Positions 14,055 to 58,168 of a stretch of 64,000 nucleotides of DNA are shown piece after piece (the first letter of the stretch is position 1; every line of letters begins with the position of its first letter). The DNA is from Erythrobacteraceae bacterium (lineage in GTDB: Bacteria > Pseudomonadota > Alphaproteobacteria > Sphingomonadales > Sphingomonadaceae). Under the pieces are notes generated by a model. That model was not told where the DNA came from and ran no database searches. It worked only from the letters and a program-made list of their open reading frames with translations. The stretch lies in contig JANNOJ010000015.1 in NCBI GenBank assembly GCA_031399025.1, positions 36,306-100,305 on the forward strand. Direction: 5' to 3'. Both the position numbers and the translations under genes were made by a program.

Positions 14055-14076
14055 GAGGGGCTGTCCCTTCGGGGGC

Positions 14077-15021: not shown

Positions 15022-15050
15022 GATGCCGGCCTAGCATGGACCCATCGCTC

Positions 15051-16484
15051 TCACAGGTCGTCCAGCACCCAGCTGTCCTTGGTCCCGCCACCCTGGCTGG
15101 AGTTCACCACCAGCGAGCCCTTCTTGAGCGCCACGCGGGTGAGGCCGCCCGGGGTGATGTAGACGCCTTCGGGCGAGCACAGCACGAAGGGGCGCAGGTC
15201 GACATGGCGCGGCGCCAGGCCGCGACGGGTGAAGATCGGGCAGGTCGAAAGCGCGAGGGTGGGCTGGGCGATGTAATTGTCGGGCTTGGCCAAGAGCTTC
15301 TGACGGAATTCCGCAATCTCCCGCTTGCTCGAGGTGGGGCCGATCAACATGCCGTAGCCGCCCGACCCGTGGACTTCTTTGACCACCAGCTGTTCCAGAT
15401 TGTCGAGCACATATTTGAGCGCGTCGGCATCGGCGCAGCGGAAGGTTTCGACATTTCCCAGCAGCGGCCGCTCGCCGGTGTAGAACTCCATGATCTCGGG
15501 CATGAAGGAATAGATCGCCTTGTCGTCGGCGACCCCGGTGCCCGGCGCGTTGGCGATGGTGATGCGGCCCGCGCGATAGACGTCCATGATGCCCGGCACG
15601 CCCAGCACGCTATCGGGGTTGAAGGTGAGCGGATCGAGGAAGTCGTCGTCGACGCGGCGATAGAGCACGTCGATCGGCTGGAAACCGACGGTGGTGCGCA
15701 TCTGCACCCGGCCGTCGACGATCCGCAGGTCGCTGCCTTCGACCAGCTCGGCGCCCATCTGGTCGGCGAGGAAGGCGTGCTCGAAATAGGCCGAATTGTA
15801 GATCCCCGGCGTCAGTACCGCCACGATGGGATTGGCGCTCGCGTCGGGCGGGGCGCAGGCCGCGAGGCTCTGGGCGAGGCGGCGCGGATAGTTTGAAACC
15901 TGCTGCACCTTCACCCGGGTGAACAGCTCGGGAAACATGGCCATCATGGTCTCGCGGTTCTCGAGCATGTAGCTAACCCCCGATGGGGTGCGGGCGTTGT
16001 CCTCCAGCACCAGAAAGTCGTCGACCCCGATGCGCACCAGGTCGATGCCCACGATGTGGGTGTATACTCCGCCCGGCGGAGTGAAGCCGACCATCTGCGG
16101 CAGCCAGGCGTTGTTGTCGCGGAACAGGCGCTCGGGCAAGCGGCCCGAACGGATGATCTCCTGGCGGTGGTAGAGATCGTGCATGAAGGCGTTCAATGCC
16201 CGCACCCGCTGCTCGATGCCGCGCGACAGCCGCCGCCATTCGGCGCCGCTGATGATCCGCGGGACCATGTCGAACGGGATCAGCCGCTCCTCGGCGTCGT
16301 CCTCGCCGTAGACGTTGAAGGTGATGCCCGCGCGGCGGAAGAAGGTCTCGGCCTCGAAGCCCTTGCGCCGCACCCAGCCCGGCGCCTGCTCGGCCAGCCA
16401 TTGCTGGTATCCGCGATAGGCGGGGCGGATGGACCCGTCGGGGCCGTGCATCTCGTCGAAGCTGGCGGGCTCGGTCGCGCTCAT
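15051..16484 (-). CDS. circularly permuted type-2 ATP-grasp protein
   Basis: 477 aa. MSATEPASFDEMHGPDGSIRPAYRGYQQWL...ITFNVYGEDD...RLIPFDMVPRII...LVVKEVHGSGGYGMLIGP matches this family. First gene of the four-gene operon. Confidence 0.88.
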   Translation of the reverse strand: MSATEPASFDEMHGPDGSIRPAYRGYQQWLAEQAPGWVRRKGFEAETFFRRAGITFNVYGEDDAEERLIPFDMVPRIISGAEWRRLSRGIEQRVRALNAFMHDLYHRQEIIRSGRLPERLFRDNNAWLPQMVGFTPPGGVYTHIVGIDLVRIGVDDFLVLEDNARTPSGVSYMLENRETMMAMFPELFTRVKVQQVSNYPRRLAQSLAACAPPDASANPIVAVLTPGIYNSAYFEHAFLADQMGAELVEGSDLRIVDGRVQMRTTVGFQPIDVLYRRVDDDFLDPLTFNPDSVLGVPGIMDVYRAGRITIANAPGTGVADDKAIYSFMPEIMEFYTGERPLLGNVETFRCADADALKYVLDNLEQLVVKEVHGSGGYGMLIGPTSSKREIAEFRQKLLAKPDNYIAQPTLALSTCPIFTRRGLAPRHVDLRPFVLCSPEGVYITPGGLTRVALKKGSLVVNSSQGGGTKDSWVLDDL

Positions 16485-38901: not shown

Positions 38902-40494
38902 ATGACGCAACCACCGCATTTCGCCATCAGCAAGCGCGACCTGCTGGCCATGATCGGCAAATCGGCCGGCGCCACCGCGATGCTGATGGCCATGGCGCCG
39001 CTCGGCCAGGCCCATGCGTCGACCTTCACCGGGCCGATTAAGCTCGAAGGCGGCGCCAAGGGAGCCTCGGTCGTCATTCTTGGAGCGGGTCTGGCCGGAA
39101 TGGTCTCGGCGCTGGAGCTGAGCCGCGCGGGCTACCGGGTGCAGGTGCTGGAGTTCAACCCGAAGGTCGGCGGCAGGACGTGGTCGCTGCGCGGCGGCGA
39201 CAGCTACACCGAGCTGGGCGGTCATACGCAGACCTGCACCTTTGCCGACGGCAATTACCTCAACCCCGGCGCCTGGCGCATTCCCACCGAGCACGGCGGG
39301 GTGATCCATTATTGCAACGAGCTGGGCGTGGCGCTCGAGCCGTTCCAGCAGAACAATTACAACGCCTATGTCCATTCGACCAAGGCGTTCGGCGGCAAGC
39401 CGCAGCGCTTCAAGACGATCCAGGCGGATTATCACGGCCATGTCGCCGAGCTGCTGGGCAAGGCGGTCAAGCAGAACGCGCTCGACGATGCGGTAACGGC
39501 CGAGGATGCCGAGATCCTCATGGAATCGCTGCGCGACTGGGGCGCGCTCGACCGTGACATGCGCTATGTGAAGGGCACTGCCTCGGCCCGCCGGCGCGGG
39601 TGGGAAAAGGGCCCCGGCGGCGGGCTGACCGCGGTGCCCATCCCGTCCGAGCCGCTCGACCTGGCCACCGTGCTCAAATCGGGCCTGTGGGAGAGCCTGG
39701 GCGGCCACCTCACCAACGAGCACCAGCAGGCGATCTTCCAGCCCGTGGGCGGCATGGACCAGATCGCGGTCGGCTTCGAGCGCGCGATCGGCTCGCTGGT
39801 GCGCCTCAACAGCAAGGTCACCGCCATCCGCCAGGACGATGCCGGCGTGAGCGTGGAATATCTCGACACGGTGACGGGCGAACGGCTCACCGCGCAGGCC
39901 GATTACTGCATCAACACCATCCCGCTCTCGATCCTGGCGCAGATCCCCATGAATGTCGGCGGGCCGATGGCCGCGGCGATCCGGGCGGTGCCCTATGGCC
40001 CGAGCGTGAAGGTGGGGCTGGAATTCAAGCGCCGCTTCTGGGAGCAGGACGAGCAGATCTACGGCGGCATCACCACTACCGACCTCCCCAATTCGCAGAT
40101 CTCCTATCCCAGCTCGGGCTATGGCTCCAAGGGTCCGGGGGTGTTGCTGGGCGCCTACGTGGGCGGCGCCACCTCCTACGAGCTGTCCTCGCTGCCGCCC
40201 CAGGAGCGCGTGGCCAAGGCGCTCGAATGGGGCGCGAATATCCACCCGCAATATCGCGACGAGTTCGTGAGCGGCATCTCGGTCGCCTGGCACCGCGTGC
40301 CCTGGACGCTGGGCTGCTCGGGCCGGTGGACCGAGGAGACGCGCGCCGCGCATTACCACAATCTGTGCGAGATCGACGGGCGCATCGTGCTCGCCGGCGA
40401 GCACGCCTCCTATATCGGCGCGTGGCAGGAAGGCGCGGTGACCTCAGCGCTCGATGCGATCGGGCGGCTGCATCACCGTGTCCAGGCGGCCTGA
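38902..40494 (+). CDS. flavin monoamine oxidase-family protein with Tat-like signal (paralog 1)
   Basis: MTQPPHFAISKRDLLAMIGKSAGATAMLMAMAPLGQAHA leader (KR variant of the twin-Arg motif). FAD fold VVILGAGLAGMVSALEL..VLEFNPKVGGR. C-terminal RIVLAGEHASYIGAWQEGAVTSA. About half the positions match paralog 2 by eye. Confidence 0.85.
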   Translation: MTQPPHFAISKRDLLAMIGKSAGATAMLMAMAPLGQAHASTFTGPIKLEGGAKGASVVILGAGLAGMVSALELSRAGYRVQVLEFNPKVGGRTWSLRGGDSYTELGGHTQTCTFADGNYLNPGAWRIPTEHGGVIHYCNELGVALEPFQQNNYNAYVHSTKAFGGKPQRFKTIQADYHGHVAELLGKAVKQNALDDAVTAEDAEILMESLRDWGALDRDMRYVKGTASARRRGWEKGPGGGLTAVPIPSEPLDLATVLKSGLWESLGGHLTNEHQQAIFQPVGGMDQIAVGFERAIGSLVRLNSKVTAIRQDDAGVSVEYLDTVTGERLTAQADYCINTIPLSILAQIPMNVGGPMAAAIRAVPYGPSVKVGLEFKRRFWEQDEQIYGGITTTDLPNSQISYPSSGYGSKGPGVLLGAYVGGATSYELSSLPPQERVAKALEWGANIHPQYRDEFVSGISVAWHRVPWTLGCSGRWTEETRAAHYHNLCEIDGRIVLAGEHASYIGAWQEGAVTSALDAIGRLHHRVQAA

Positions 40495-40498
40495 GCCC

Positions 40499-40957
40499 AT
40501 GACCATCCCCCGTAAGCTCGCACTCCGCGCCGCCTCGGCCACGGCGCTCGCTCTCCTCGGCGCGACCGCGCTGGCGCAGGAGACGGCGCCCATCGGCCCC
40601 GCCGTCGCCGGGCCGGTCGTGGGCGAAGCGCAAGCCGCCGCGATCGCCAGCAACGCCCCGCGCTTCACCCAGACCTCGGGCGAGGACCTGTACATGAACG
40701 TGTGCGCCGCCTGCCACATGCCCGACGGTCAGGGCGCGCAAGGAGCCGGCTTCTACCCTTCGCTGGCCGGCAACCCGAAGCTCGCCGCCGGCGCCTACCC
40801 CGCCTACGTCGTGCTCAAAGGCATGAACGGGATGCCCGCGGTGGGCGAGATGATGGACGATGCGCAGGTGGCCGAAGTGGTCAATTACGTGCGCACCCAT
40901 TTCGGCAACGACTTCGATACGCCGATGCAGCCTGCGGACGTGGCCGCGCTGCGCTGA
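40499..40957 (+). CDS. monohaem class-I cytochrome c (partner of paralog 1)
   Basis: Sec signal MTIPRKLALRAASATALALLGATALAQ. Haem site CAACH. Distal Met region GMNGMPAV. Starts 4 nt after the oxidase stop. Confidence 0.85.
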   Translation: MTIPRKLALRAASATALALLGATALAQETAPIGPAVAGPVVGEAQAAAIASNAPRFTQTSGEDLYMNVCAACHMPDGQGAQGAGFYPSLAGNPKLAAGAYPAYVVLKGMNGMPAVGEMMDDAQVAEVVNYVRTHFGNDFDTPMQPADVAALR

Positions 40958-40979
40958 GGCGCTGCGCCGGCGGCGCGCG

Positions 40980-41399
40980 CTAGCCTTCGGGCGACGTCGC
41001 GCCGGCGATCGCCGCCACCTCGGCCGCCGTCACCGGCTCGGGATAATCGTTGAACTCGGTGCGCACGTGGGTGAGCACCGCGGCGATCTGCTCGGGGGTC
41101 AGGATGTCGGTGAACCACGGCATGCCGGCGCGCCCCTTGGCCATGATCTCAATGATGTAGGCCTTGTCGGCCATGCGCGGGTTGTCGGCCAGCGCCGGGA
41201 TGCCCGTGCCTGCCCCCGCCCCGCCCATGGCATCGGCCATGTGGCACGATTGGCAGATCTGCTGATAGACCTGCCCTCCCTCGCTGGCGATCTGCACCGA
41301 GGCGGTGCCGCCCGGCCCGTCCTGCGCGCGCGGGGCGTGCGCGGGCACGGCCAGCGCGGATGCGCCCACGGCGAGCGTGGCGGCGAGACGCGCCCTCAT
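40980..41399 (-). CDS. monohaem class-I cytochrome c (partner of paralog 2)
   Basis: 139 aa. Signal MRARLAATLAVGASALAVPAHA. Haem site CQSCH. GRAGMPWF Met region. ATG overlaps the TGA of the upstream oxidase gene. Confidence 0.85.
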   Translation of the reverse strand: MRARLAATLAVGASALAVPAHAPRAQDGPGGTASVQIASEGGQVYQQICQSCHMADAMGGAGAGTGIPALADNPRMADKAYIIEIMAKGRAGMPWFTDILTPEQIAAVLTHVRTEFNDYPEPVTAAEVAAIAGATSPEG

Positions 41400-42988
41400 G
41401 CGGCGAGCGCGCGGGTGTGCAGCTGCTCGATGGCGTTGAGCGCCGAGAGCAGCGAGCCTTCCATCCAACCGCCGTAATAGGTGGCATGTTCGCCCGCGAG
41501 CGCGATGCGACCGTCCATGGTGACGAGGTTGGTGTAATGCGCCGCGCGGCTGTCCTCGGTCCAGCGCGCGGTGCAGCCCTGGATCCACGGCATGCGGCTC
41601 CAGGCGATCGAGGCGCCGCTGACGTATTCGCGGCGATATTCCTCGGGGTGGAAGACCGATCCCTGCTCCAGCGCCAGCTCGATCCGCTGCTCGGGCGTCA
41701 TCCCCGCCAGCTGGAACGCGCCCGCGCCGCTGGCGAAGGCGCCCAGCAAGACCGCCGGGCCATCCTGGAAATAGTTGAAATTGGGGTATGAGATGAGCGA
41801 GATCGCCTGGTCGGTGAAGCTGTGTCCGCCATAGATCGAGTAGTTCTTCTCCCAGAAGCGGCTCTTCATCTCGAGGCCGATCTTCACCATGCTGCTCATC
41901 GGCACCGCGCTGATCGCCGCCTTGGTGGCATCGCTCACCTGCACGTCGAGCTGGCTGAGGATCGTGGGCGGGATCGTGCACACGCACCAGTCGGCCTGCG
42001 CCTGGCCGGTCTCGCCGGTGACGGTGTCGGTCCAGCTGGCCGTGACCCCCCGCTCGCCCTGCGCCAGCCGCGTGACGCGGGTATTCATCCGCACCATCGG
42101 CTTGATTTCATTGAAGAAGCCCTGGGCGATCATGTCCATGCCGCCCTTGGGCTGGAACATGGTGGTCTGCATCACGTAGTTGAAATAGAAGTTCATCTGC
42201 GTCCAGACGTTGCTCGCCAGCACGTCGGTGAGACTGTTGACCGACGAGGCGCTGGGCGCGCCGACGAGACCGCCGCCGGGCGGGGTGTCGTAGCCGCGCT
42301 GGGCCGAGGTCTGGATCGAGCTGGTATAGGCCAGGTTCTCGTCGAGCAGGCCCCATTCGCGCATGGCGACGAGCAGCTTCTCCTTGTCCTCGGTGGTCAC
42401 TTGGCTGTCGAGCGCGCCGGCGTTGAGCGACTTGGAGAGCAGCTCGGAGACGTGGCCCTTGAAGTCCACCGCCAGCTCCTTGTAGCGCTGCGGCTTGCCG
42501 CCGAAGGCGTTGGTGCGGTGGACGAAGGTGTTGGTGTTGTTCTGGATGAACGGCTCCAGCTCAACTCCGAACGCCTTACAATAATGCAGCAAGGTGCGGT
42601 GGTGGTGCGGGATGCGCCAGGGCCCGGGGTTGAGGTAATTGCCGGGTGAGTAGGTGACCTGCTGGGTAGCCCCGCCCACCTCGACCACCCGGTCGCCCCC
42701 GCGCAGCGTGTAGCAACGGCCGCCGACGCGGTCCTGGTATTCGAGCAATTGCACGCCGTAGCCGGCCTTGGCCAATTCGTAAGCCGCCAGCATCCCGGCC
42801 AGACCCGCACCCAGCACCAGCACGCTGGCGCCGGGCCGCGCGCCGGTGAGCGCGGGCGGCCCGCTGAACTGCGATTCCGCCGCGTGGCCCAGCACGGTCA
42901 TCGCCTGGTACATCGCCAGGCCGCCGCCGATCGTGCCGATCATCGACAGCAGCTCGCGGCGGGTGGGCACGTAATCGGGGAGGCTCAT
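41396..42988 (-). CDS. flavin monoamine oxidase-family protein with twin-arginine signal (paralog 2)
   Basis: MSLPDYVPTRRELLSMIGTIGGGLAMYQAMTVLGHAA (TRRELL Tat motif). VLVLGAGLAGMLAAYEL..LLEYQDRVGGR. C-terminal RIALAGEHATYYGGWMEGSLLSA. Confidence 0.9.
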   Translation of the reverse strand: MSLPDYVPTRRELLSMIGTIGGGLAMYQAMTVLGHAAESQFSGPPALTGARPGASVLVLGAGLAGMLAAYELAKAGYGVQLLEYQDRVGGRCYTLRGGDRVVEVGGATQQVTYSPGNYLNPGPWRIPHHHRTLLHYCKAFGVELEPFIQNNTNTFVHRTNAFGGKPQRYKELAVDFKGHVSELLSKSLNAGALDSQVTTEDKEKLLVAMREWGLLDENLAYTSSIQTSAQRGYDTPPGGGLVGAPSASSVNSLTDVLASNVWTQMNFYFNYVMQTTMFQPKGGMDMIAQGFFNEIKPMVRMNTRVTRLAQGERGVTASWTDTVTGETGQAQADWCVCTIPPTILSQLDVQVSDATKAAISAVPMSSMVKIGLEMKSRFWEKNYSIYGGHSFTDQAISLISYPNFNYFQDGPAVLLGAFASGAGAFQLAGMTPEQRIELALEQGSVFHPEEYRREYVSGASIAWSRMPWIQGCTARWTEDSRAAHYTNLVTMDGRIALAGEHATYYGGWMEGSLLSALNAIEQLHTRALAA

Positions 42989-43035: not shown

Positions 43036-43542
43036 TCAGGGCGCGGTGGCGGCGATCGCCTCGATCTCGACATACATCCCCGGGCGACCCAGCGCGGCGA
43101 TCTGGATGGTCGAGCGGGTCGGGCGGTTGGGCTGTTCGGGGGTGCCGAAGAAGGTGCGGAACACCTCGTTCATCGCGGCCGAGTCCATCCGCCCCTCGGT
43201 CTCGGGCGTGCCGACCAGGAACACGGTCATCTTGACCACGTCGCCCATATCCATCCCCATGCCTTCCAGCGTCGCCTTGATCTTGGTCAGCACCGACAGC
43301 GTCTGCTGGCGCGTGTCACCCAGATTTTCCGGCACGGCGGGATCGAGCGGGGAGGGCGTGGTGCCCGAGATGAAGACGATGCGGCTGTCTGCCGGCAGCG
43401 AGGCGGTGCCGGCGATGGTTGCGGTGGGGCTGTTGTAGGTCCGCTCGATCTGCGCGGCGGCTTCCTGCGCCAGGGCGCCGCCGCTCGGGAGGGCCAGCGC
43501 TACCGGCAGGGCGGCAAGGGCAAGGGCAAGGATGTGGCGCAT
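43036..43542 (-). CDS. RidA/YjgF/UK114 (Rid) family protein with signal peptide
   Basis: 168 aa. MRHILALALAALPVALALPSGGALAQ leader. Rid core ISGTTPSP...GDTRQQTLSVLTKIKATLEGMGMDMGDVVKMTVFL...PTRSTIQIAAL...VEIEAIAA. The Arg equivalent to the imine-deaminase Arg is present (PTRS). Confidence 0.8.
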   Translation of the reverse strand: MRHILALALAALPVALALPSGGALAQEAAAQIERTYNSPTATIAGTASLPADSRIVFISGTTPSPLDPAVPENLGDTRQQTLSVLTKIKATLEGMGMDMGDVVKMTVFLVGTPETEGRMDSAAMNEVFRTFFGTPEQPNRPTRSTIQIAALGRPGMYVEIEAIAATAP

Positions 43543-43618: not shown

Positions 43619-46252
43619 TCAGAAGTCCACGGCGATGCGGGCGTAGTAATAGCCGCCGTTCGTGCCGTATGGACCGAAGGTGTACGGCGCGTTGATTACG
43701 CCCGAATTGTTGATGTAAGGCGAGCGGCCATTGAAGCCGACTGTCCCGGATGTGGGGTCGGCCGCATTATAATCTGCTACAAGTGGTGGGACTTCGGGTA
43801 TCTTGTCGAACAGGTTGTTTGCGCCCACTGTCACCGTGAAAAACTCGGTTAGGTCATAACTCAATTCCAGATCCACGATGGCCGTGGACTCCACCACTGC
43901 CTCGTAATAGCGTCCCTCGATAGGTGCTTGAGTGGTGGAATTCGAGTTCGGCTCCACCAATTGAGTTGTGTCGGAATACCAGTTCACGCGGGCATTCGCA
44001 CTGAAGGGACCGGACTGGAAAAAAGCGCCAAGGTTGACCTTGAAGTCCGGGCTGGCGCGTTCGACCGTGTCTTCGGCGGTGATGGTCCACAGCGTGCCGA
44101 GCGAACTGCTGTCAGTCACCCTGGTCTTGTTGTAGTTTGCACCCAGCGACAGATCCACTGTTCCGAAGGGCAGGTCGACCGGATAGCGGGCGGCCAGTTC
44201 AGCGCCGGTAGTTTCGGTGTCGATCCCGTTGGTGAAGGTCTGGATCGCCAAGGTGCCTGTCGCCAGCACGGTGGGGTCGAGTTGCTTGCCGCTGGCCTCG
44301 ATGGCGTCGAGCACCAGCTGATACGGGGTCAGGCCGTTGATCAGCGGAGTCAATACCTGGGTGGGGGGTGAGTTTGTACCGACATACCGTTGACCGGTGA
44401 TCGCGCCGGAAGACACGATCCGGTCGTTGATCTTGATGTAATAGCCATCAAGCGTCACCACCAGCCGGTCGATCGGGCGGATCACCGTACCCACTGAGAA
44501 GTTGAGCGATTCCTCCGGCCCAAGCGAGCCGAACCCGGCGCTAGCCGCACCGGATGAACTCGGCGCGAGTTGCAGCGTTGCCGAAGTGGGGCCGACATTG
44601 GTGGCCGAATAGCCCTGTTCCGCCAGGGTCGGGGCGCGGAAGCCGGTGCTGGCGGTGGCGCGCAGCGCGAACGCGTCGGAGAAATCATAGCGGGTGGTGA
44701 TCTTGCCGATCAGCGCGTCGCCGAAATCGCTATAGTCCTCGTACCGTCCGGCGAGGTCAACGGTCCAGCCTGCCAACGGATCGGAGATGAAGTTTACATA
44801 CACCGCCCTGGCCGTGCGATCGATCGTGCCTGCATCGGTGGCGGAATAGCCGGGGAAGGACTGGCCGCCCTCAACGTAAAGCGAAAGGTCGTCGCCCTGG
44901 AAGATCGTGTAGGTTTCGTCACGGAATTCGGCGCCGAAGGCGAATGTCAGCGGCTCGTTCAAGCCGATCTCGAACTCCTTGTTGACGTCGAGCGTGCCGA
45001 CAAACTGGTTGAACTGGAAGCCGCCATCGTAAAAGTCGGTCGGCGATTGGCCGGTATCGACATAGAGCGACGCGTTAACCGATTCGGTGGTGTAAACCTG
45101 CGCCACGTCTTCCGCATAGGTCCCGGACAGGTCCCAAAGCCACCCGCCCGCTTCACCCTCAATTCCGGTGGTGAGCGAGAATTCGTCCTGAAACACCTCG
45201 ATATGCGGCACCAGGCCGGTCTGCGCGGTGTTGGCAAAGCACTGGGTCGGGTCGTTGGTTTGCGCCACGTATCTATCTTGAGCAGCGTCATATCTGCGGC
45301 ACACGCGGGTCGGCACGCGGTAGCCCTGCAGCGCGTCACCGCTGCGGAATGAGACGTCCCCGAACGAGTAGACGTCGACCCCGCCGAAATCATAACCGAA
45401 GTTGAAGAAACCAACCGTCAACTGCGATGCGGGCTGACCGCCGTTGATGTTCGCGGTACCGCCATTGTCGGCCAGCTCCTGATAGATCGACGCGAACGCA
45501 GGAGCGACGGCGGCATTGGGCGTGCCGTCCACTCCTACCACTGAGATCTGCCCGTCGCCCTGCGTGGTCACATCATTGCGGCGATGTTGTAGGGCGAGAT
45601 CGAGGAAACCAGCATCGCCTACCTCGAGACCGAAATTCCCGCTGAGATTGTAGGTCCGCCCTTCACCGTCATAATACTCGCCAGCCGACCCGCGGAGCGC
45701 GGCGCCCGAGGTATCGCTCTTCAGGATGATGTTGATGACGCCGGCAATCGCATCCGATCCGTACACGGCGGCGGCGCCGTCCTGCAGGATCTCGATGCGC
45801 TCGATGATGTCGGGCGGGATGAGGTCGAGGCTGGGCGCGGCCGAGCCGCCGAAGGCGCCGTTGATGACCTGGAGGATGGCGTTGCCGTGGCGGCGCTTGC
45901 CGTTGACCAGCACCAGCGTGTGGTTGGGGCTGAGACCGCGCAGACGGGCAGACAGCGAGAAGCTCGCCATGTCGGTGCCCTGCGTCTGCGCCTGGAATGA
46001 GGGGACGAGCTGGGTCAGCGCCTGGTTGAGGTTGGGCTGGCCGACCCGGGAGAGCGCGTCTTCGGAGAGCAGCTGGATCGGCGCGGCGCTGTCGGCGGCG
46101 ATCTGGCCTGCAGCGCGGGTGCCGGTGACGATGATGACTTCCGCTTCAGCGACAGCGTCGGTGGTCGCCGTATCGTCCTGCGCGCGGGCGGTGGTGGAAA
46201 GGGCAGTCGAGGCAAGAAGTGCAAGTGCAATCGGTCGGGCAATACGCGACAT
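43619..46252 (-). CDS. TonB-dependent receptor
   Basis: 877 aa. Signal peptide, plug domain (VIIVTGTRA..., [29 protein letters not shown]), long beta-barrel, terminal aromatic residue (...ARIAVDF). Confidence 0.92.
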
Positions 46253-46540: not shown

Positions 46541-47059
46541 ATGATTGCCAGAACGTTTCCGATTGCCGCGCTGCTCGCCTGCGCCGCCGCGCTGCCCGCC
46601 CCGGCGGCGGCCGAGGGCGAGGTCATCCGCATCCAGCGCAATCCGGGCGCCTTCATCCTCGAGGCGGCGCGGGTTAACGCAGGCGCGGACGTGATCTACG
46701 TCTCGGGCCAGCTGCCCTCGCCGATCGACCCGGCCATGCCGATGAGCGAGGTGACCAGCATCGAGCAGATGGGCGACACCCGGACGCAGACCATCAGCAC
46801 TTTAGCCAAGATCCGTGACATTCTGGCAACACAGGGCTTCACCATGGGCGACGTGGTGAAGTTGACGCTGTTCGTGATGGCCGATCCGGCCACCGGGGAA
46901 ATGGATTTCGCCGGGGTCAACCAAGGCTTCCGCCAGTTCTTCGGGACGGCGGACAACCCCAATACGGTGGCGCGCTCGACCTTCGAGGTCGCCGGGCTGG
47001 TCGGTCCGCATTACCTGATCGAGATCGAGGCCATCGCCGCCCGCGCCCCGGCGCCCTGA
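46541..47059 (+). CDS. RidA/YjgF/UK114 (Rid) family protein with signal peptide (second copy)
   Basis: 172 aa. MIARTFPIAALLACAAALPAPAAA leader. VSGQLPSP...GDTRTQTISTLAKIRDILATQGFTMGDVVKLTLFV...VARSTFEVAGL...IEIEAIAA. GGGGAGG RBS. Divergent from the receptor gene. Confidence 0.8.
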   Translation: MIARTFPIAALLACAAALPAPAAAEGEVIRIQRNPGAFILEAARVNAGADVIYVSGQLPSPIDPAMPMSEVTSIEQMGDTRTQTISTLAKIRDILATQGFTMGDVVKLTLFVMADPATGEMDFAGVNQGFRQFFGTADNPNTVARSTFEVAGLVGPHYLIEIEAIAARAPAP

Positions 47060-48077: not shown

Positions 48078-49001
48078 CTATTGCTCGATGACCCGGACGG
48101 CAATGGCTGCCGCCGCAGAGCGGGTTTCCACGCCCAGCTTCTCGAAAACGTGCTCGAGATGCTTCTGCACGGTCCGCGGGCTGATCTGCAGCACATCGCT
48201 GATGTCGCTGCTCGACTTGCCGTAACTGACCCACAACAGTACCTCCGCTTCGCGCCGGGTGAGGCCGAGCATGGCCGCCAGCCGTTCTATATCCTTGCGC
48301 GGGTTCAACTCGTTGAGCCGGATCAGCACTTCGTTCTCGCGGTAACGCGCCACCAGCACTAGCTCCACCATTCCATCGGGCGAGGCCCGGTCCACCCGCA
48401 CGCTGGCGCCGGTCGCGCCTGACGACAGCAGCCGCTCCAGCGGCGCGAGCAGCGCCGGCGGCAGGGCTTTGGCGCGCGACCAGCCGGGCACCAGCCGCGA
48501 CACTGCCGCTTCCGCACGCGGGGTGCACCATAGCAGGCTGCCGCGGGCATCGGTGGCCAGCATCAGCCGGCCGGTGGCATCGAGGCTGGCGGCGCTGGCG
48601 TGGGCCGCGCGGCCTTGCGCCATGTGCACCCGCACCCGGGCGAGCAATTCGGTGAGGTTCACCGGCTTTTTGACATAGTCCACCCCGCCGACCTCGAATG
48701 CCTCCACCACATGTTCGCTTTCAGTCAGCCCGGTCATGAAGATCACCGGGATCCCGGTAAGGCGGGGATTGCGCTTGATCCTCACGGTGGTCTCGAACCC
48801 GTCGATGCCCGGCATCACCGCATCGACGATGATCAGATCGGGCAGGAATCGGTCGAGCAGCTCGAGCGCGTTTTCGCCCGAGGTCGCAATCAGCACGGTG
48901 ATGTCCGCGCTTTCCAGCGTGTCGGTGATGACATGCAGCGATGCCGGCTCGTCATCGATCACCAGCACGGTGTCGGAGTGGCCGGGAATGGATGGTATCA
49001 T
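48078..49001 (-). CDS. response regulator: receiver + central domain + LuxR-type HTH
   Basis: 307 aa. VLVIDDEP...LIIVDAVMPGIDG...VIFMTG...YVKKP (intact receiver). C-terminal LTRREAEVLLWVSYGKSSSDISDVLQISPRTVQKHLEHVFEKLGV. ATG overlaps the kinase TGA. Confidence 0.85.
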   Translation of the reverse strand: MIPSIPGHSDTVLVIDDEPASLHVITDTLESADITVLIATSGENALELLDRFLPDLIIVDAVMPGIDGFETTVRIKRNPRLTGIPVIFMTGLTESEHVVEAFEVGGVDYVKKPVNLTELLARVRVHMAQGRAAHASAASLDATGRLMLATDARGSLLWCTPRAEAAVSRLVPGWSRAKALPPALLAPLERLLSSGATGASVRVDRASPDGMVELVLVARYRENEVLIRLNELNPRKDIERLAAMLGLTRREAEVLLWVSYGKSSSDISDVLQISPRTVQKHLEHVFEKLGVETRSAAAAIAVRVIEQ

Positions 49002-50821
49002 GCGCTCTCCAGCAGCTTGGCCATGCCGGCGAGATCGAACTCGTCCAGCGCGGCATAGAGCGCGCTCACCAGCCGGCCGTGGTTTGGCGCCGCGGTGCCC
49101 AGCATCGCGATCTCGGCCTCGATACCGCGCACATGGCCGATCTGGATGCGCTCGAGCAGCCGCTCGACATGCGCCCTGGCATTTGCCGGCAGCCCGCCGG
49201 GCGGCGGATCGACCGCCTCGCCAGCGCCGCCGGTTGCTTCCCATTTCCAAGAAAAATGCAGCAGCGCGGCGATCACTTCGGCCATCTCGTTCAGCCGATA
49301 TGGCTTGACGAAGAAGTGATCGTGCATCGGCCGGTCATATTGCGGGCGCTGGAATTCCTGCGAATTGGCCGAGGCCATGACGATGACCAGATCCGGTGCC
49401 GGCTCCGACCTCCCGGCGGGGCGCGCACGGGCGCGCAGGTGACTGGCGACATCCCAGCCGGACATTCCAGGCAGGCTGATATCGAGCACGGCGAGGTCGA
49501 AGTTGCGCGTGTCGCACAGCGCCACCGCGCTTTCGCCATCGGCCAGCGACACCACCTCCAGCCCGCAACCCGCCAGGAAGCTCTCCAGAAAGCCGCGCTG
49601 GTCGGCATCGTCGTCCACCAGCAGAACGGATCGGCGCGGGCCCTCATAGCCGGTGATTCGCCGGTGGATGGTTCCCCGCGCTTGCGCATTGGTCGGTTCC
49701 GCCAGCATCAGGGTGACGCGGAAGCAGGCGCCGCGGCCAGGCTCGCTCTCCAGTTCCAGATTGCCGCCGAGGATCTCGATTATTGCCTTGGTGATCGGCA
49801 GGCCCAGGCCGACGCCGGGGCGCACGTGGCGATCGGTCTTGTCCACCTGCTCGTAAGGATCGAAGATGCGTTGCTGGTTCTCCGGCGCGATGCCGGGGCC
49901 GGTGTCGGTGATCTCGATAGTGCCGATCTGGCCGCGATAGGCGAGGCGCATGGTCACCGTGCCGGCATCACTGAACTTGATCGCATTGCCGATGAGGTTG
50001 ATCAGCGCCTGGCGCAGCCGGTTCTGATCGGTGCGGACGAACTCGGGCGTCCAGGTGGTGGCCTCGTAGACGAAGTCCAGTCCCTTAGCCTCCGCGGCGG
50101 GGCGCATCATCAGCACGATCTGATCGATAAAATCGGGCAGCCGGACGATCTCGCTGCGCACCCGCAACATGCCGTGCTCCAGCCGCGAGATGTCGAGCAG
50201 GCTTTCGATGAGGCTGGTCATGTGTTCGGCGCAGCGGCGGATGATGCGCGCTGCCTCCTGTGGCCGCACGTCGGTTTCCTGTTCCACCAGCTGGGCATAG
50301 CCATAGATGGCGTTGAGCGGCGAGCGGATCTCGTGGCTGATATTCTCCAGATAACGGGTCTTGGCGAGGTTAGCGGCGTCGGCGTTCTCCATGCCGCGCC
50401 GGGCGGTCTCCATCCTCGCCGTGAGTCCGGCCACTTGCATGATGCGCAGGCGCAGCACGCGATAGCTGAGCACCGCCGCGCTGAAGCTGACCACGATCCC
50501 GATGACGATGATCTGGTGCAGCGACGTGCCATCCCTCGGGAGCGCGATCTCCAGCCCCAGCATCAAGGCATCGAGCAGCAGCGCGATCAGGATCAGGCCG
50601 ATGGCGAGCGGGGCCAAGACCTCGGGATTATCGAACTGGCGAAAAGCACCCTGGAAGCGGGGCTCTTCCGACCCCGCTGGCGGCGATACGGGCAGGTCGG
50701 CGGCGCTCGTCAACTCCGCCGGTCCGCGCGCGTGCGCACGGGAGCGGGTCCTGCCCCGGCGGCTCTCTCCTGCACTCTGTTTGACCCCGTCATCTGCCAA
50801 CCCGCGGGCGGTTTGCCGCAC
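48998..50821 (-). CDS. hybrid sensor histidine kinase/response regulator
   Basis: Two TM segments with a very short loop. H-box ISHEIRSPLNAI. ATPase boxes LINLIGNAIKF, DTGPGI, GVGLGL. Receiver SVLLVDDD...LAVLDISLPGMSG...FFVKP. C-terminal ~90 aa with GHVRG (possible HPt-like). Start (GTG 50821) uncertain. Confidence 0.85.
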   Translation of the reverse strand: MRQTARGLADDGVKQSAGESRRGRTRSRAHARGPAELTSAADLPVSPPAGSEEPRFQGAFRQFDNPEVLAPLAIGLILIALLLDALMLGLEIALPRDGTSLHQIIVIGIVVSFSAAVLSYRVLRLRIMQVAGLTARMETARRGMENADAANLAKTRYLENISHEIRSPLNAIYGYAQLVEQETDVRPQEAARIIRRCAEHMTSLIESLLDISRLEHGMLRVRSEIVRLPDFIDQIVLMMRPAAEAKGLDFVYEATTWTPEFVRTDQNRLRQALINLIGNAIKFSDAGTVTMRLAYRGQIGTIEITDTGPGIAPENQQRIFDPYEQVDKTDRHVRPGVGLGLPITKAIIEILGGNLELESEPGRGACFRVTLMLAEPTNAQARGTIHRRITGYEGPRRSVLLVDDDADQRGFLESFLAGCGLEVVSLADGESAVALCDTRNFDLAVLDISLPGMSGWDVASHLRARARPAGRSEPAPDLVIVMASANSQEFQRPQYDRPMHDHFFVKPYRLNEMAEVIAALLHFSWKWEATGGAGEAVDPPPGGLPANARAHVERLLERIQIGHVRGIEAEIAMLGTAAPNHGRLVSALYAALDEFDLAGMAKLLESA

Positions 50822-51049: not shown

Positions 51050-51478
51050 TCAGCCGCTCGGTTCCGCCGCGTCGAAATCAATCCGCCGCAGCGCGCGCGG
51101 TTCATCGGGCAGAGCGCGGCTTCCGGCAGGCGCGCCGTTGGCCTGCAGGATGAAGGCGATCACGCGGGCATTGTCCTGCGCCGACAAGGTGCCGGGCGCA
51201 TGTTGCGGCATGGCCCGGGCAATATAGTCGAACAGCTCGCCCACCGGCCGCCCGCCCCAATTGGCGACGAATTTGCCGACCAGGCCAGGTGTCTCCACCG
51301 TGCCTTCCAGCTGCCCGCCGTGACACATCGCGCATTGCCGCGCATAAAGCTGGCCGCCTTCCGCGGCCTGGAGTGCGGTATAAACGCCGTCGGCGCTGCC
51401 GCGGCCCGCCGCCGGCCCGCCGCCGACCGCCACCAGCGCCACCGCCCCCGCCAGGCTGGTCAGAAGCGGTTGCCTCAT
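51050..51478 (-). CDS. monohaem cytochrome c (partner of the DAAO-like flavoprotein)
   Basis: 142 aa. Signal MRQPLLTSLAGAVALVAVGG. Haem site CAMCH. ARAMPQH Met region. ATG overlaps the TGA of the upstream flavoprotein gene. Confidence 0.8.
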   Translation of the reverse strand: MRQPLLTSLAGAVALVAVGGGPAAGRGSADGVYTALQAAEGGQLYARQCAMCHGGQLEGTVETPGLVGKFVANWGGRPVGELFDYIARAMPQHAPGTLSAQDNARVIAFILQANGAPAGSRALPDEPRALRRIDFDAAEPSG

Positions 51479-52749
51479 GCCGCGTCCGCTTGCATGGTGA
51501 GCGGGGCGAACAGCGGGGCCAGCGCCGCCAGCGCCTCCTCGATCGGCGCGCGTGCGGGCAGTTCGGTGCTGTCGCCCACGCCCAGCATATCACCCAGATC
51601 GGGATTGTTGTTCATCAGGACGATGCCGTCCGCCTTGGACAGCAGCGACATGTTGCGCGAGCGCAATGCGTAATTCGCCTCCGGTTGCGGCACCAGCCAG
51701 CCGGTCTGGCCGCGCACCGGGATCACCGAGCGGTCCTGCCACAGGTCGCGCGCCGAATAGCCGGTGGCGTGGATCACCACCGGCTCGGGCAGTTCGCCCA
51801 ACTCCCCGGGCGAGTGAAAATTGCGCATCTCGAACTTGCCCCCGCGGCTGAAGAACTCGTCCAGCAGCAGGTTTCCGTAAGCGGGAAAGTTGAAATACAT
51901 CTGCGAGGTGCGCGTGGCGAACGGCGTGGCGAACGGGTTTTCCTCGGGCATCAGGGGTACCGCTTGCGGCACGATGTCGCGGATGCGCGAATCCAGATGA
52001 GCGAATTCGCTGTTCTGGTGCGGTTGCCCGGTGGTGTCGTAGCTGTCGCTGATCGCCGGGTCGGGTTCCCAGACGCGGCGGGTGATCGGCTCGTGCGACA
52101 CCGCATAGCTGTCGCCGAAAGCCACCGGATCGCCCGGCAGACCCAGCATCGTGCGGAACATCTTCCACGAGAACCGCGCCATCTGCTCCCACTGATAGGG
52201 AAACTGCGCGCCCGCGGGGCCGGCCAGGGCAATCCGCGAGCCGGGGGTGTAGGAGCCGCTCGCCCGCATCGAGCGGGTGCGGAAGAACTGCTCGCGGGCG
52301 TAGATCGTCACCTCCAGCCCGGCGCGCTGAGCGACGATTGCCGACGTGAGCCCGATGATCCCGCAGCCGACCACGGCGATCCGCTCGGGCAGCACCGACA
52401 GCGCCTTGCCCACCGCCACTTCGGCCGATCCCCAGGACAGCGACCAGCCGCTGCCGCCATGGCCGTAATTGTGGATCACCAGCCGGTCGCCGACCGTCTC
52501 GGTACCCAGGTTCGGCCCGGCCGCGCGCAACGGGCGGATGCAGCACTTGAGATCGATGAGCTGGTCGAGCGAGACCCGCATCGGCACCAGCTGCGGGCGG
52601 CTGCCGGCGGGCGCGGCCTGCATTGGTGAGGATTGGGCGCGAAGCGGCGCGGGCAAGGCCAGCGCGCCCGCCGCGCCGAGCACGCCCTTGATCACCGCGC
52701 GCCGCTCGCTGTGGATTTCGGCGGTTCGATGGTGTGGCAAGTGGCTCAA
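51475..52749 (-). CDS. Tat-signal FAD-dependent oxidoreductase, D-amino-acid-oxidase-like, apparently circularly permuted
   Basis: 424 aa. SERRAVIKGVLGAAGALALPAPLRA Tat leader. VIHNYGHGGSGWSLSWG (normally the DAAO C-terminus) at residues ~91-107, followed by the dinucleotide fold IAVVGCGIIGLTSA at ~124-137. PVRGQ later. TTG start. Confidence 0.8.
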   Translation of the reverse strand: MSHLPHHRTAEIHSERRAVIKGVLGAAGALALPAPLRAQSSPMQAAPAGSRPQLVPMRVSLDQLIDLKCCIRPLRAAGPNLGTETVGDRLVIHNYGHGGSGWSLSWGSAEVAVGKALSVLPERIAVVGCGIIGLTSAIVAQRAGLEVTIYAREQFFRTRSMRASGSYTPGSRIALAGPAGAQFPYQWEQMARFSWKMFRTMLGLPGDPVAFGDSYAVSHEPITRRVWEPDPAISDSYDTTGQPHQNSEFAHLDSRIRDIVPQAVPLMPEENPFATPFATRTSQMYFNFPAYGNLLLDEFFSRGGKFEMRNFHSPGELGELPEPVVIHATGYSARDLWQDRSVIPVRGQTGWLVPQPEANYALRSRNMSLLSKADGIVLMNNNPDLGDMLGVGDSTELPARAPIEEALAALAPLFAPLTMQADAA

Positions 52750-54745: not shown

Positions 54746-57700
54746 ATGAGCTTCCGCAACATCTCCGCCTGGGCGATCCGCAACCCGATCGTCCCCATAC
54801 TCGCCTTCATCGGCCTGGTCATGGCCGGGATGATGAGCTTTGCCGAGATGGAGGTGCAGAACAATCCGGACATCGAATTTCCGGTGGTCAACGTCAGCAT
54901 TTCGCAGCCCGGCGCCGCGCCGACCGAGGTGGAGAACCAGATCAGCCAGCGGGTGGAGGCGGCGGTTCAGTCGCTGGACGGGGTCGAGACGATCCAGACG
55001 ACCGCATCCGAGGGCAGCTCGCTCACCAGCATCGAGTTTGAACTGGGCACCGACATCGCCGAGGCGGTGAACGAGGTGAAAAATCAGGTCGACCAGATCC
55101 GCGGCGAGCTGCCCGAGGGTATTCTCGAGCCGAGCATAACCAAGCAGCAGACCAGCGCCGATCCCATCGTCTTCTTCGGCGTCACCGCCGACGACATGAC
55201 CATCGAGCAGCTGTCGTGGTTTATCGACGACACCATCACCAAGCGCCTGCTGTCGGTGGATGGCCTGGCCGAAGTCGGGCGCAATGGCGGCGTCGACCGC
55301 GAGATCCTGGTGATCCTCGATCCGGCCAAGATGCAGGCGCTCGGCGTCACCGCGTCGCAGGTCAACACCGCGCTGCGCCAGCTGAACGTCAATGCCGCCG
55401 GCGGGCAGGCCGAGATCGCCGGTTCGCGCCAGTCGGTTCGCGTGCTCGGCAACGCCGCCAACGCCTACGAATTGTCGCAGAGCCAGGTCGACATTGGCAA
55501 CGGGCGCTCGGTCAAGCTGGCCGACCTGGGCAGCGTGAGCGACAGCTACGGCGAACTTCGCTCGATCGCCAAGATCGACGGCAAGCAGGTGGTCACCTTC
55601 TCGATCAGCCGCGCGCGGGGCGAATCCGACGTGGCGGTGTACGATGCCGCGGTCGAGGTGCTCGAGCAAATCGAAGAAGAGAACCCGGGCATCACCTTCA
55701 CCCGGCTGTTCACCGAGGTGGATTACACCAAGGCGCAGTACGAAAGCAGCATGGCGGCGATGATCGAGGGCGCCATCCTGGCGGTCATCGTCGTGTTCCT
55801 GTTCCTGCGCGACTGGCGCGCGACGGTCATCGCCGCGCTCGCGATCCCGCTCTCGGCGATCCCCACCTTCTGGTTCATGGACATGCTGGGTTTCACGCTC
55901 AACACGCTCTCGCTGTTGGCGTTGGGGCTGGTGGCCGGCGTGCTGGTGGACGATGCGATCGTGGACATCTAGACCATCGTGCGCCACATGCGCTTGGGCA
56001 AATCGGCCTATCAGGCGACCCTCGCCGCCGCCGACGAGATCGGCCTCGCCGTGGTCGCCACCACCTTCTCGATCGTGGCGGTGTTCCTGCCGGTGGGCCT
56101 GATGCCCGGCGTCTCGGGCCAGTTCTTCAAGAATTTCGGCCTCACGGTCGTCGTCTCGGTGCTGATGTCGCTCGGGGTGGCGCGGCTCATCACGCCGATG
56201 ATCGCCGCCTATTTCCTCAAGGCCAAGGGTACTCAGGCCCACGGCGAGGGCGCGATCATGGACTGGTACATGCGCGTGTTGCGCTGGTCGCTCGATGCGC
56301 GCGCCTTCCGCGAAATGCGCGCCCGCCTGGGGTATGTTCCCACCAGCCCCTGGTTCCATCTCGCGGCGCTCGCCGTCGGGCTGGCCGTGGTCGCCGGGAT
56401 CAGCGCCCTGCTAGGCTCCGGCGCCAACATTTTTGCCGGGGCGGGGCCGGGCTGGATCCTCCTGATGCTCCTCGCCGGATACCTGGTGGGCGGGCTGGTC
56501 AACTTCATCTTCGGTCTGCTGCTGGGCCGCTTCATCGGCTACGAGACCAGCCTCTTCACCCGGCGTGCGCGATATCTGGGCGCTCGCTTCCTCGACCATC
56601 GCGTCTGGATGATGCTGACCGGCGTCGTCGCGCTGGGCCTGACGATCGTGCTGTTCGTCAACCTGCCGCAGCAGTTCTTCCCCGACGAGGACAGCGACTT
56701 CTCGCGCATCACCGTCGAGATGGTCCCGGGCACCACGCTCGAGCAGACCGAGGCGGTGATCGACCAAATCGCCGCGCGGATGAGAGAGGAGCAGGAGGTC
56801 GCGCTTGCGCTGGGCGTCGCTCGCGAAGGCTCGGGCGTGATCCGCCTCGTGCTCAAATCCGACCGGGAACGCCCCAGCACCGAGTTCGAAGAGGAGCTCA
56901 CCCCGGTCCTGCAGACCTTCCCCGACGCGCGGGTCAATTTCGAGAACCAGCAGGGCGGCGGTGGTGGCACGGGCCGGGCGATCTCGATCATGTTGGCGGG
57001 TTCCGACCCGACGCAGCTCAACCGCACCGCCCAGATCCTGGTCGAACAGATGCAAAGCGTGCGCGGCGCGATCGCCCCGCGCATCGACTACGACCTGCAG
57101 CGGCCCGAACTGATCATCCGACCACGCGAAGATCTCGCGGCGCAACTGGGCGTGACCACCCAATCGCTGAGCCAGGCGATCCGCATCGCCACGTTGGGCG
57201 ACATCGACGAGAACGCGGCCAAGTTCTCCCTTTCCGACCGGCAGATTCCCATCCGCGTGCGCCTCGCCGAGAATGAGCGGCGCAATGTGGAGACGATCCG
57301 CAACCTGCCCGTCACCACCGCCGATGGGGGGTCGGTGCCGCTCGACCGGGTGGCCGAGATCTCCTTCGGCCAAGGCCCGACCGAGATCGAGCGTTACAAC
57401 CAATCGCGGCGGGTCTTCATCGGCGTCGACCTGGCGCCGGGTGTCGCGCGCGGCGACGTGCTCAACGCCATCAATGCGCTGCCGATCATGGGCGACCTGC
57501 CCGCGGGCGTCAGCAACGAGCCGGTGGGCGCCGACGAATGGCAGGGCGAGCTCGTCGGCAGCTTCATCATCGCGCTGGTGACCGGCATCCTGCTGGTGTT
57601 CTCGGTGCTGGTGCTGCTCTACCGGCGGTTCGTCTCGCCGCTGGTCAACATGGCTTCGCTCGCGCTCGCGCCGCTGGGCGGCTTGCTCGCGCTGTATGTC

Positions 57701-58168
57701 GCCGGCTACCTCAAGACCGGCCAGCCCGAGCCGGTCTCGATGCCCGTGTTCATCGGCCTGCTGATGCTGCTGGGGATCGTCGGCAAGAACTCGATCCTGC
57801 TGATCGACTTCGCGCTCGAGGAGATGGAGACCGGCAAGCGCAAGCGCGACGCCATCCTCGAAGCGGGCCACAAGCGCGCTCAGCCGATCGTCATGACGAC
57901 GATCGCCATGATCGCCGGCATGATACCCACCGCGCTCTCGCTCGGCGGCGATTCGGCCTGGCGCGCGCCGATGGGCACGGTCGTGATCGGTGGCCTGATG
58001 CTGTCGACCGTGCTGACGCTGCTGATCGTGCCCGCGGGCTTCAGCCTGGCCGACGGGATGGAGAAGAAGCTGGGCCCCTGGCTGCGCGACCGGTTCCTGA
58101 CCTACCGTCCGGGCGACGAGCGGAAGGGGGGGCATCGCCCCGCGCCGGAGCTGCAGCCCGCTGAGTGA
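54746..58168 (+). pseudogene. RND (AcrB/HAE1-type) efflux permease interrupted by one in-frame TAG at 55970-55972
   Basis: ORFs 54746-55972 and 55979-58168 are in the same frame. Together they form a colinear ~1140-aa RND permease. The stop sits in the conserved TM4-proximal motif: LVDDAIVDI(TAG)[15 protein letters not shown]. Confidence 0.8.

Follow-up and report, generated by a model that had tools for sequence, protein, structure and literature searches.

An island of facing flavoprotein–cytochrome c gene pairs in an Erythrobacteraceae bacterium and its probable role in periplasmic amino-acid oxidation

What does an exported flavoenzyme oxidise, and to what does it hand its electrons, when its gene is followed directly by the gene for a small cytochrome c? 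The question is raised twice over by a 64,000-nucleotide stretch from an Erythrobacteraceae bacterium (assembly GCA_031399025.1, contig JANNOJ010000015.1, positions 36,306 to 100,305; below, the window, with coordinates counted from its first letter), where two such pairs of genes face each other. Each pair consists of a flavin adenine dinucleotide (FAD) enzyme, FlavoA or FlavoB, and a cytochrome, CytA or CytB. A first-pass annotation had proposed that these enzymes of the flavin amine oxidase (FAO) family pass electrons to private cytochromes in the manner of the nicotine oxidoreductase NicA2 and its cytochrome CycN. The reading that we consider probable is that the locus encodes periplasmic L-amino-acid:cytochrome c oxidoreductases. 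The analysis establishes the gene anatomy, the family, the conserved residues and the synteny; from these we infer the export route, the electron acceptor, the substrates and the physiological role.

The flavoproteins and their cytochrome partners

The identity of the flavoproteins can be approached through both sequence and predicted fold. FlavoA and FlavoB match the Pfam family PF01593 (Amino_oxidase) with E values of 9e-56 and 1e-52 (190.5 and 180.2 bits, the gathering cutoff being 19.8), covering profile positions 1–438 of 443. Their best sequence match in the PDB is the L-amino-acid oxidase (LAAO) of Rhodococcus opacus, RoLAAO (2JAE; E 1.4e-92 for FlavoA and 2.8e-80 for FlavoB), followed by reconstructed ancestral (tetrapodal) LAAOs, snake-venom LAAOs and L-glutamate oxidase, with monoamine oxidase B (MAO-B) appearing only at about 1e-13 to 1e-15. 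A Foldseek search with the AlphaFold model of FlavoA (predicted local distance difference test, pLDDT, 74.5) again places 2JAE first (E 5e-43, 37% identity); ranks 1–27 are all L-amino-acid, L-glutamate or L-lysine oxidases, and MAO-A ranks after them. For NicA2, neither 5TTJ nor 7C4A is among the best 60 sequence matches or the best 50 fold matches. By sequence and modelled fold, then, FlavoA and FlavoB belong to the LAAO clade and not to the NicA2/monoamine oxidase clade, so the likeness to NicA2/CycN first proposed would hold for the working logic and not for the clade. For the same reason, the two substrate classes originally allowed, amines or amino acids, are no longer equally plausible: an amino acid is much the likelier, given the clade and an invariant active-site arginine (see below). 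Databases name the homologues “flavin monoamine oxidase”, and none of the nine proteins scanned reached the cutoff of an NCBIfam equivalog.

Conserved residues were examined in a family alignment of 107 members, 88 of them FlavoA-like and 19 of the FlavoB (B) clade, together with a neighbour-joining tree without bootstrap. Besides the GxGxxG dinucleotide fold (GAGLAG, residues 61–66), the flavin-N5 lysine (K370 in FlavoA, K369 in FlavoB) is invariant, as is the arginine (R126 and R125) aligned to the carboxylate-binding arginine of RoLAAO (107/107 in each case). The carboxylate-binding tyrosine is Y419 in FlavoA and is kept in all 88 FlavoA-like proteins. The RoLAAO residues concerned, which lie at SEQRES indices 83 and 370 in the alignment, are presumably Arg84 and Tyr371 in the published numbering.

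FlavoB differs in an orderly way. In the unbootstrapped tree its clade lies outside a large group made up of FlavoA and other proteobacterial homologues, which points to an old duplication. Only four alignment positions cleanly divide the B clade from all the others at high conservation, namely (FlavoA to FlavoB) V282 to K281, Y419 to F418, Q450 to E450 and Q509 to M509; their contexts include the FQP[V/K]GGM motif, the carboxylate tyrosine and the residue following the active-site tryptophan. From the general structure of LAAOs and MAOs, we take three of the four to lie in motifs lining the flavin or substrate site. The changes fit different substrate pockets in FlavoA and FlavoB, and the earlier suggestion of two specificities is consistent with them.

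A further residue may concern the flavin itself. Cys472, in a PW-x-x-GC motif (codons 40315–40317 in FlavoA and 41573–41575 in FlavoB), is invariant in 107/107 members, RoLAAO having alanine there. Three alignment methods align it with Cys397 of human MAO-B (the sequence used is identical to 1GOS), and the stretch is gapless from a common tryptophan (W463 = W388, the cysteine lying at +9 in both). Cys397 is the 8-alpha-S-cysteinyl-FAD attachment site of MAO-B. A covalent link raises the redox potential of a flavin and is typical of flavocytochromes c. Cys472 may tether FAD through an 8-alpha-S-cysteinyl bond.

Export was judged by motif inspection for all the flavoproteins and cytochromes. The leaders described in the first-pass annotation are present ahead of the FAD fold: SKRDLL in FlavoA (window 38932–38949), a Lys-Arg variant, and the twin-arginine TRRELL in FlavoB. 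In each, a hydrophobic stretch and an AxA-type end come between the motif and GxGxxG. Nearly all homologues have the same elements, the leader reading (S/T)RRxLL and the AxA-type end lying about 40 residues ahead of the FAD fold. Arg-Arg is the form in every homologue, FlavoB included, other than the sphingomonad FlavoA orthologues (L001–L010 and L023 in our numbering of loci), which read [STN]KR[DE]LL; of 40 sequences, all have R12 and at least 90% have K11. Since the Lys-Arg form is conserved in these orthologues, it is a natural variant and not a defect. We infer from the leaders that both flavoproteins are exported by twin-arginine translocation (Tat).

Evidence for the electron acceptor comes from the gene order. 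A genome scan with one genome per species gave at least 596 loci with relatives, of which the best 80 were examined (57–77% identity to FlavoA; alpha-, beta- and gammaproteobacteria and one Vicinamibacterales metagenome-assembled genome) with the window proteins as queries against their open reading frames (ORFs). In 77 of the 80 loci, the flavoprotein gene has a monohaem cytochrome c gene as its immediate neighbour: the latter lies directly downstream on the same strand in 75 and directly upstream in 2, while in one locus it is 3.6 kb away and in two none was detected. Of 76 junctions, 33 are overlaps and 41 are gaps of 0–30 nt, so that 74/76 measure 30 nt or less. Each partner ORF has exactly one CxxCH (75/75) within a common pattern, CxxCHM...G.A.GAG..YP.L...G...MP, in which the methionine of G...MP is likely to be the sixth haem ligand. 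This pairing is far beyond chance.

The partnership also extends to lineage. In 17 metagenome contigs, FlavoB orthologues are followed by CytB-type orthologues, and the latter (full-length ORFs) score 141–224 bits against CytB and 57–83 against CytA; FlavoA and CytA show the reverse. Because the CytA and CytB lineages thus track their own flavoprotein lineages, the word “private”, used for these cytochromes when only the window had been read, is justified. Other arrangements were also seen. In L011 (5179–8584), one cytochrome c gene lies between a FlavoA-like (LAAO-like) gene and a gene like that of DAO3, the third flavoprotein of the window (see below); in L084 (7043–8632), L094 and L110, a third, FlavoB-like paralogue comes after CytB; and L061 has three FlavoA-like genes inside 12 kb.

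Within the window itself, both pairs are compact. The coordinates of the flavoprotein genes (Table 1), the 4-nt gap, the ATGA overlap and the 22-nt distance between stops, all given by the first-pass annotation, were recovered from the ORFs: the FlavoA TGA is separated from the CytA start by GCCC, and the FlavoB TGA and the CytB ATG share the ATGA. The flavoproteins, estimated by eye to be about half identical, are 51% identical and 67% similar over 527 aligned residues (E = 0), and the cytochromes, which match Cytochrome_CBB3/Cytochrom_C (PF13442/PF00034), are 38% identical across 86 residues (E 9e-15). The GC content of the window is 62–74%, and genuine genes are distinguishable by codon-position GC. 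An upstream ATG at 38857 was ruled out as the FlavoA start in favour of 38902, because about 100 of the 120 homologues listed are 530 residues long and open at the equivalent methionine. An intrinsic or bidirectional terminator in the spacer was likewise rejected: the fold energy of the 22 nt is no better than that of shuffled sequences (z = −0.15), and no terminator-like site was found there.

The island around the two pairs

The two pairs belong to a longer series of genes (Table 1), several of which bear on what the enzymes might do; two Rid genes, a receptor gene and a third pair are among those that the first-pass annotation had passed over.

Table 1. Features of the island, in window coordinates
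Feature	Coordinates	Strand	Description
FlavoA	38902..40494	+	530 aa; predicted exported LAAO-like FAD enzyme, Lys-Arg Tat-type leader SKRDLL
CytA	40499..40957	+	152 aa; monohaem class I cytochrome c, CAACH, Sec-type signal
Spacer	40958..40979	.	22 nt separating the convergent cytochrome stops; short GC palindrome inside
CytB	40980..41399	-	139 aa; monohaem cytochrome c, CQSCH, Sec-type signal
FlavoB	41396..42988	-	530 aa; LAAO-like FAD enzyme, Tat-type leader TRRELL, probably old paralogue of FlavoA
RidA1	43036..43542	-	predicted exported Rid3-subfamily imine deaminase, PF01042; start MRHILAL...; 47 nt upstream of FlavoB
TonB-dependent outer-membrane receptor	43619..46252	-	Plug and TonB_dep_Rec_b-barrel; first gene of the receptor-RidA1-FlavoB-CytB operon
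RidA2	46541..47059	+	predicted exported Rid-family deaminase, PF01042; ORF opens 46487, start MIARTF...; divergent from receptor
REC-LuxR response regulator	48078..about 49010	-	Pfam assignment; downstream of third pair
Hybrid histidine kinase	48998..50821	-	Pfam assignment; downstream of third pair
Cyt3	51050..51478	-	monohaem cytochrome c, CAMCH; ATGA overlap with DAO3
DAO3	51475..52749	-	D-amino-acid-oxidase-like FAD enzyme, PF01266, Tat-type leader ERRAVIK, circularly permuted

The closest PDB relatives of RidA1 are PSPTO_3006 and PFL_1385 (E 5.4e-31 and 7.6e-29), and the catalytic arginine (equivalent to Arg105 of RidA) is present, PTRSTIQI being aligned to PARTALQV; RidA2 was placed in the family solely by its Pfam and NCBIfam matches. 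Both relatives of RidA1 are Rid3 proteins, for which the hydrolysis of iminoarginine and of imino acids made by LAAO has been shown in vitro (PMC5619798). Among the 80 loci, 32 have a Rid gene no more than 7 kb away and 25 have one immediately behind the cytochrome gene; of 33 Rid proteins encoded nearby, 31 carry a signal peptide. An unbiased clustering of the neighbours of these loci also brought out a secreted M20 peptidase (12 loci) and an Opp/Dpp-type ATP-binding cassette (ABC) ATPase (17 loci). The Rid3, M20 peptidase and peptide-ABC neighbours together point to free alpha-amino acids as the substrates and to a released imino acid as the product in the periplasm. In Bradyrhizobium and others (L014, L026, L048 and nine more; at about 9.1–11.1 kb), the gene for an M20 peptidase with a signal peptide comes after the flavoprotein, cytochrome and Rid genes.

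RidA1 is followed by FlavoB in at least 12 contigs. The operon order headed by the receptor is also found in L081, L084–L087, L089, L103, L105, L106, L113 and L114 and is listed for L002 too, and the position of RidA2 is kept in L002 and L084–L087. The full layout, with RidA2 divergent from the receptor operon and CytA-FlavoA converging on it from the other side, occurs in L081 and L086, and in L087 with a 2-kb insert; the convergent core alone is found in contigs L097, L102 and L111. In the closest genome, that of Altererythrobacter sp. KTW20L (L002), a second outer-membrane receptor-like gene (9064–11151, minus strand) fills the slot of FlavoB and CytB, so pair B would be a variable insert of the island.

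Beyond RidA2 lies a third pair, DAO3 and Cyt3, of a different fold family. The HMMER domain-wise alignments map residues 315–372 of D-amino-acid oxidase (DAAO), its C-terminal segment, to residues 69–116 of DAO3, ahead of the Rossmann start at 122. Since the C-terminal segment precedes the Rossmann start, DAO3 is a circular permutation; it lacks the canonical DAAO order of an N-terminal Rossmann fold and a C-terminal HNYGHGG helix. The permuted motifs IRPLR and HNYGHGGSG are invariant across 38 homologues, and the family comprises 2,461 proteins at E ≤ 1e-10. With the AlphaFold2 model (pLDDT 79, predicted template-modelling score 0.80) as the query, the 31 best Foldseek matches are DAAO or D-aspartate oxidase (E 4e-13 to 7e-11). 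DAO3 and Cyt3 probably carry out the same chemistry on another class of substrates, possibly D-amino acids. A DAO3 of identical sequence is on record (P0121, L116; a Logan assembly of SRR20217204 and an NCBI contig); the recorded copy is called 18 residues shorter, from a GTG start, and so is without the twin-arginine motif.

The order DAO-cytochrome c-histidine kinase-response regulator is found in 4/4 other sphingomonad genomes, followed by a Rid gene in two of them. A cytochrome c gene also follows the DAO3 homologues in L003, L091 and L093, where the DAO-cytochrome pair stands in one string of genes with FlavoA-CytA (L003) or FlavoB (L091 and L093). Because the four-gene order is conserved in all four genomes, the histidine kinase and the LuxR-type regulator probably form the two-component system that controls the island. 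A search for a regulatory motif shared by the regions upstream of FlavoA, between the divergent receptor and RidA2 genes and upstream of DAO3 returned only GC-rich chance 12-mers, and no sigma-70-like promoters were found between 38.3 and 47.3 kb. The recurrence elsewhere of the pairs, the Rid genes, DAO3-Cyt3 and the kinase-regulator genes in synteny means that 38.9–52.7 kb of the window is one conserved island of about 14 kb.

The genes in the rest of the window are ordinary chromosomal ones, unconnected with the island; they encode no terminal oxidase and no nicotine pathway, the latter in agreement with the first reading, which had seen no nicotine-pathway genes nearby. An Rfam scan of the whole window gave no matches. 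Two features of the flanks can be mentioned in passing. The gene for an AcrB-type resistance-nodulation-division transporter (54746–58168, plus strand) contains an in-frame TAG at 55970–55972 inside the VDDAIV-x-x-EN motif (...VDDAIVDI*TIV...), which may reflect a pseudogene, a sequencing error or read-through. At 11542–16484 on the minus strand are a circularly permuted ATP-grasp protein, an Alpha-E domain protein and a proteasome-type subunit, a known conserved association.

Electron acceptor, substrates and rival explanations

How might such an island work? The flavoprotein would fold with FAD in the cytoplasm and then be exported as a holoprotein by Tat. In the periplasm, the C-alpha–N bond of an alpha-amino acid would be oxidised to give an imino acid, with the hydride reducing FAD, and the flavin would be re-oxidised in two one-electron steps by the enzyme's own monohaem cytochrome c, itself exported by the general secretory (Sec) pathway. 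The cytochrome would feed a terminal oxidase, such that no H2O2 is formed and the electrons are conserved, and the exported Rid3 deaminases would hydrolyse the imino acid to a 2-oxo acid and NH4+. For pair B, bringing the substrate across the outer membrane is probably the task of the TonB-dependent receptor, whose gene comes first in the operon.

The central step, from an exported flavoprotein to its own cytochrome c, had already been proposed in the first-pass annotation and is backed here by gene order, paired lineages, conserved leaders and exported Rid proteins. The choice of the cytochrome as the likely acceptor relies on kinetics from other clades and on genetics from Gluconacetobacter. 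Stull's group showed that FAOs that have a Tat leader and a cytochrome c gene next to their own are dehydrogenases specific for the cognate cytochrome, and that across the superfamily dehydrogenase function is best predicted by this neighbouring gene, better than by the Tat leader (PMC12224317). Rodrigues et al. showed that in G. diazotrophicus the lao-cccA-ridA cluster is needed for the conversion of tryptophan to indole-3-pyruvate and that mutants in cytochrome c maturation lose 95% of the product (PMC5053998).

Several observations weigh against the proposal that these are amino-acid:cytochrome c oxidoreductases. RoLAAO, the closest relative to have been characterised, is a true oxidase that uses O2. 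The kinetic study itself stresses that an oxidase and a dehydrogenase cannot be told apart from the sequence, and it describes one enzyme with an adjacent cytochrome that has comparable rates with O2 and cytochrome, as well as one clade whose reaction with its cytochrome in solution is poor (PMC12224317). A literature search for the kinetics of LAAO-type enzymes with cytochrome c returned nothing beyond the Gluconacetobacter genetics (PMC5053998), and the island encodes neither a terminal oxidase nor an acceptor for cytochrome c. The Lys-Arg pair in FlavoA and in all its sphingomonad orthologues is of a kind that usually lowers the efficiency of Tat. Finally, the position of the carboxylate tyrosine is phenylalanine in FlavoB (F418) and in 18/19 of the B clade, which makes an alpha-amino acid a less secure substrate for B.

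The first of these points is the starting point for another explanation, namely that the flavoproteins are true periplasmic or secreted LAAOs, which pass electrons to O2 and make H2O2 in the service of ammonium scavenging or antagonism, after the example of RoLAAO or algal LAO1, the cytochrome being an accessory for peroxide handling or redox buffering. Tat-leader FAOs that have no adjacent cytochrome do act as periplasmic oxidases (PMC12224317), and Chlamydomonas, as cited in PMC5053998, has an LAAO with a Rid protein and, in that account, no cytochrome. However, such an accessory role sits badly with a cytochrome gene that adjoins the flavoprotein gene in 77/80 loci, mostly in translational coupling, and with the fidelity of each paralogue to its own cytochrome lineage; moreover, class I cytochromes c with a single haem are not peroxidases, and the loss of the LAAO-dependent product in the G. 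diazotrophicus maturation mutants (PMC5053998) would be hard to explain. We therefore regard an oxidase of this kind as improbable. Amine dehydrogenases in the strict sense of NicA2 and Pnao, acting on alkaloids, polyamines or other amines that lack a carboxylate, would account for the database label, for the loss of the carboxylate-binding tyrosine in FlavoB and for the fact that most of the published FAO dehydrogenases have no assigned substrate. They have a slim chance, since the best matches in both sequence and fold are all amino-acid oxidases, with NicA2 (5TTJ and 7C4A) outside the best 60 and 50, the carboxylate arginine is invariant, and the recurrent neighbours are Rid3 imino-acid deaminases, M20 peptidases and peptide ABC transporters.

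The remaining alternative concerns the purpose and may share the cytochrome c mechanism: a mainly biosynthetic or signalling role in which L-tryptophan is converted to indole-3-pyruvate for auxin, as in Gluconacetobacter diazotrophicus, in place of a catabolic gain of energy or nitrogen. The only genetic data on this type of cluster do tie it to the synthesis of indole-3-acetic acid (PMC5053998). Yet pair B is in an operon with a TonB-dependent receptor, and the acquisition of nutrients is a better fit to the two to three paralogous pairs, to the peptidase and peptide-transport neighbours and to the occurrence of the cluster in marine Alteromonas and Paraglaciecola and in many non-plant taxa; as the main role, auxin synthesis thus seems hardly likely. 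The oxidation of external amino acids at the expense of cytochrome c is the explanation that we prefer.

This explanation can be taken further, in a form that is possible but on the whole doubtful. The LAAO-like clade would be a fourth, independent lineage of cytochrome-c-dependent dehydrogenases, with FAD tethered to Cys472, set in a module for “periplasmic amino-acid respiration” under two-component control that would also comprise the permuted DAAO-like:cytochrome c enzyme, exported Rid3 and the TonB-dependent receptor. The tether would raise the flavin potential in favour of cytochrome c reduction, and amino acids of both the L and the D series would be oxidised by the module outside the cytoplasm, with no H2O2 being made.

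Known systems and significance

Flavocytochromes c such as flavocytochrome c sulfide dehydrogenase (FCSD) and p-cresol methylhydroxylase (PCMH) combine a periplasmic flavoprotein with a small cytochrome c in stable heterocomplexes and contain covalent FAD. The latter parallels the possible Cys472-FAD link. Their flavoprotein folds are unrelated to those of the window enzymes, and CytA has a weak match to the cytochrome subunit of PCMH (E 0.0066).

The closest precedent for the arrangement is the lao-cccA-ridA cluster of Gluconacetobacter diazotrophicus PAL5 (GDI2456-2454), described by Rodrigues et al. in 2016 (PMC5053998), which consists of a Tat-LAAO of PF01593, an adjacent cytochrome c and a Rid protein, and whose LAAO has 533 residues compared with 530 in the window. 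The likeness to GDI2456 was gauged from the peptides encoded by the primers in that paper (YPSHGYF, QVIHPNY, AIYQHV and NYVRSH), which have collinear matches in FlavoA, CytA and CytB. The cytochrome had already been suggested there as the recipient of the electrons (PMC5053998). The window differs from this cluster in having two facing paralogous pairs, a Rid gene upstream rather than downstream of pair B, a receptor-headed operon, a second Rid gene, a DAAO-like third pair, a two-component system and the Lys-Arg leader in FlavoA.

NicA2/CycN, Pnao and the other FAO dehydrogenases (PMC9396064, PMC12224317) share with the window pairs PF01593, a Tat leader and a neighbouring Sec-exported monohaem cytochrome c, and the same re-oxidation in two one-electron steps that feed respiration is predicted here. 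Unlike that class, the window enzymes are of the LAAO type, with the carboxylate-binding arginine and Rid partners; the 2025 survey was seeded with a NicA2 BLAST search and mentions neither L-amino-acid oxidases nor Rid nor covalent flavin (PMC12224317). RoLAAO (2JAE), at 37–38% identity, has in common with the window enzymes the carboxylate arginine, the N5 lysine and, in FlavoA, the tyrosine, and differs from them in using O2 and in having alanine at the position of the invariant cysteine. Chlamydomonas LAO1 (M-alpha LAAO with M-beta Rid), as it is cited in PMC5053998, similarly joins an extracytoplasmic LAAO to a Rid protein for external amino acids; it is eukaryotic and O2-dependent and, in that description, has no cytochrome c.

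The arrangement is thus already known, through the amine-oxidase-family dehydrogenases dependent on cytochrome c (2021–2025) and through lao-cccA-ridA (2016; PMC5053998). What looks new are three leads: the invariant cysteine at the position of the covalent flavin of MAO, the active-site changes of paralogue B and the permuted DAO3 enzyme.

The relatives are numerous, with more than 6,900 proteins at E ≤ 1e-20 in addition to the loci of the species-representative genomes. Thousands of genes named “flavin monoamine oxidase” probably encode periplasmic L-amino-acid:cytochrome c oxidoreductases, an enzyme type that is the same as the maker of the auxin precursor in Gluconacetobacter. The window offers a natural test set of unusual completeness, in which two diverged pairs allow cross-specificity to be compared alongside matched Rid proteins, a receptor that may indicate the substrate and a permuted third pair. 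If the reading is right, soil, plant-associated and marine proteobacteria would have in these enzymes a common route for taking nitrogen from external amino acids, one that conserves electrons and avoids peroxide.

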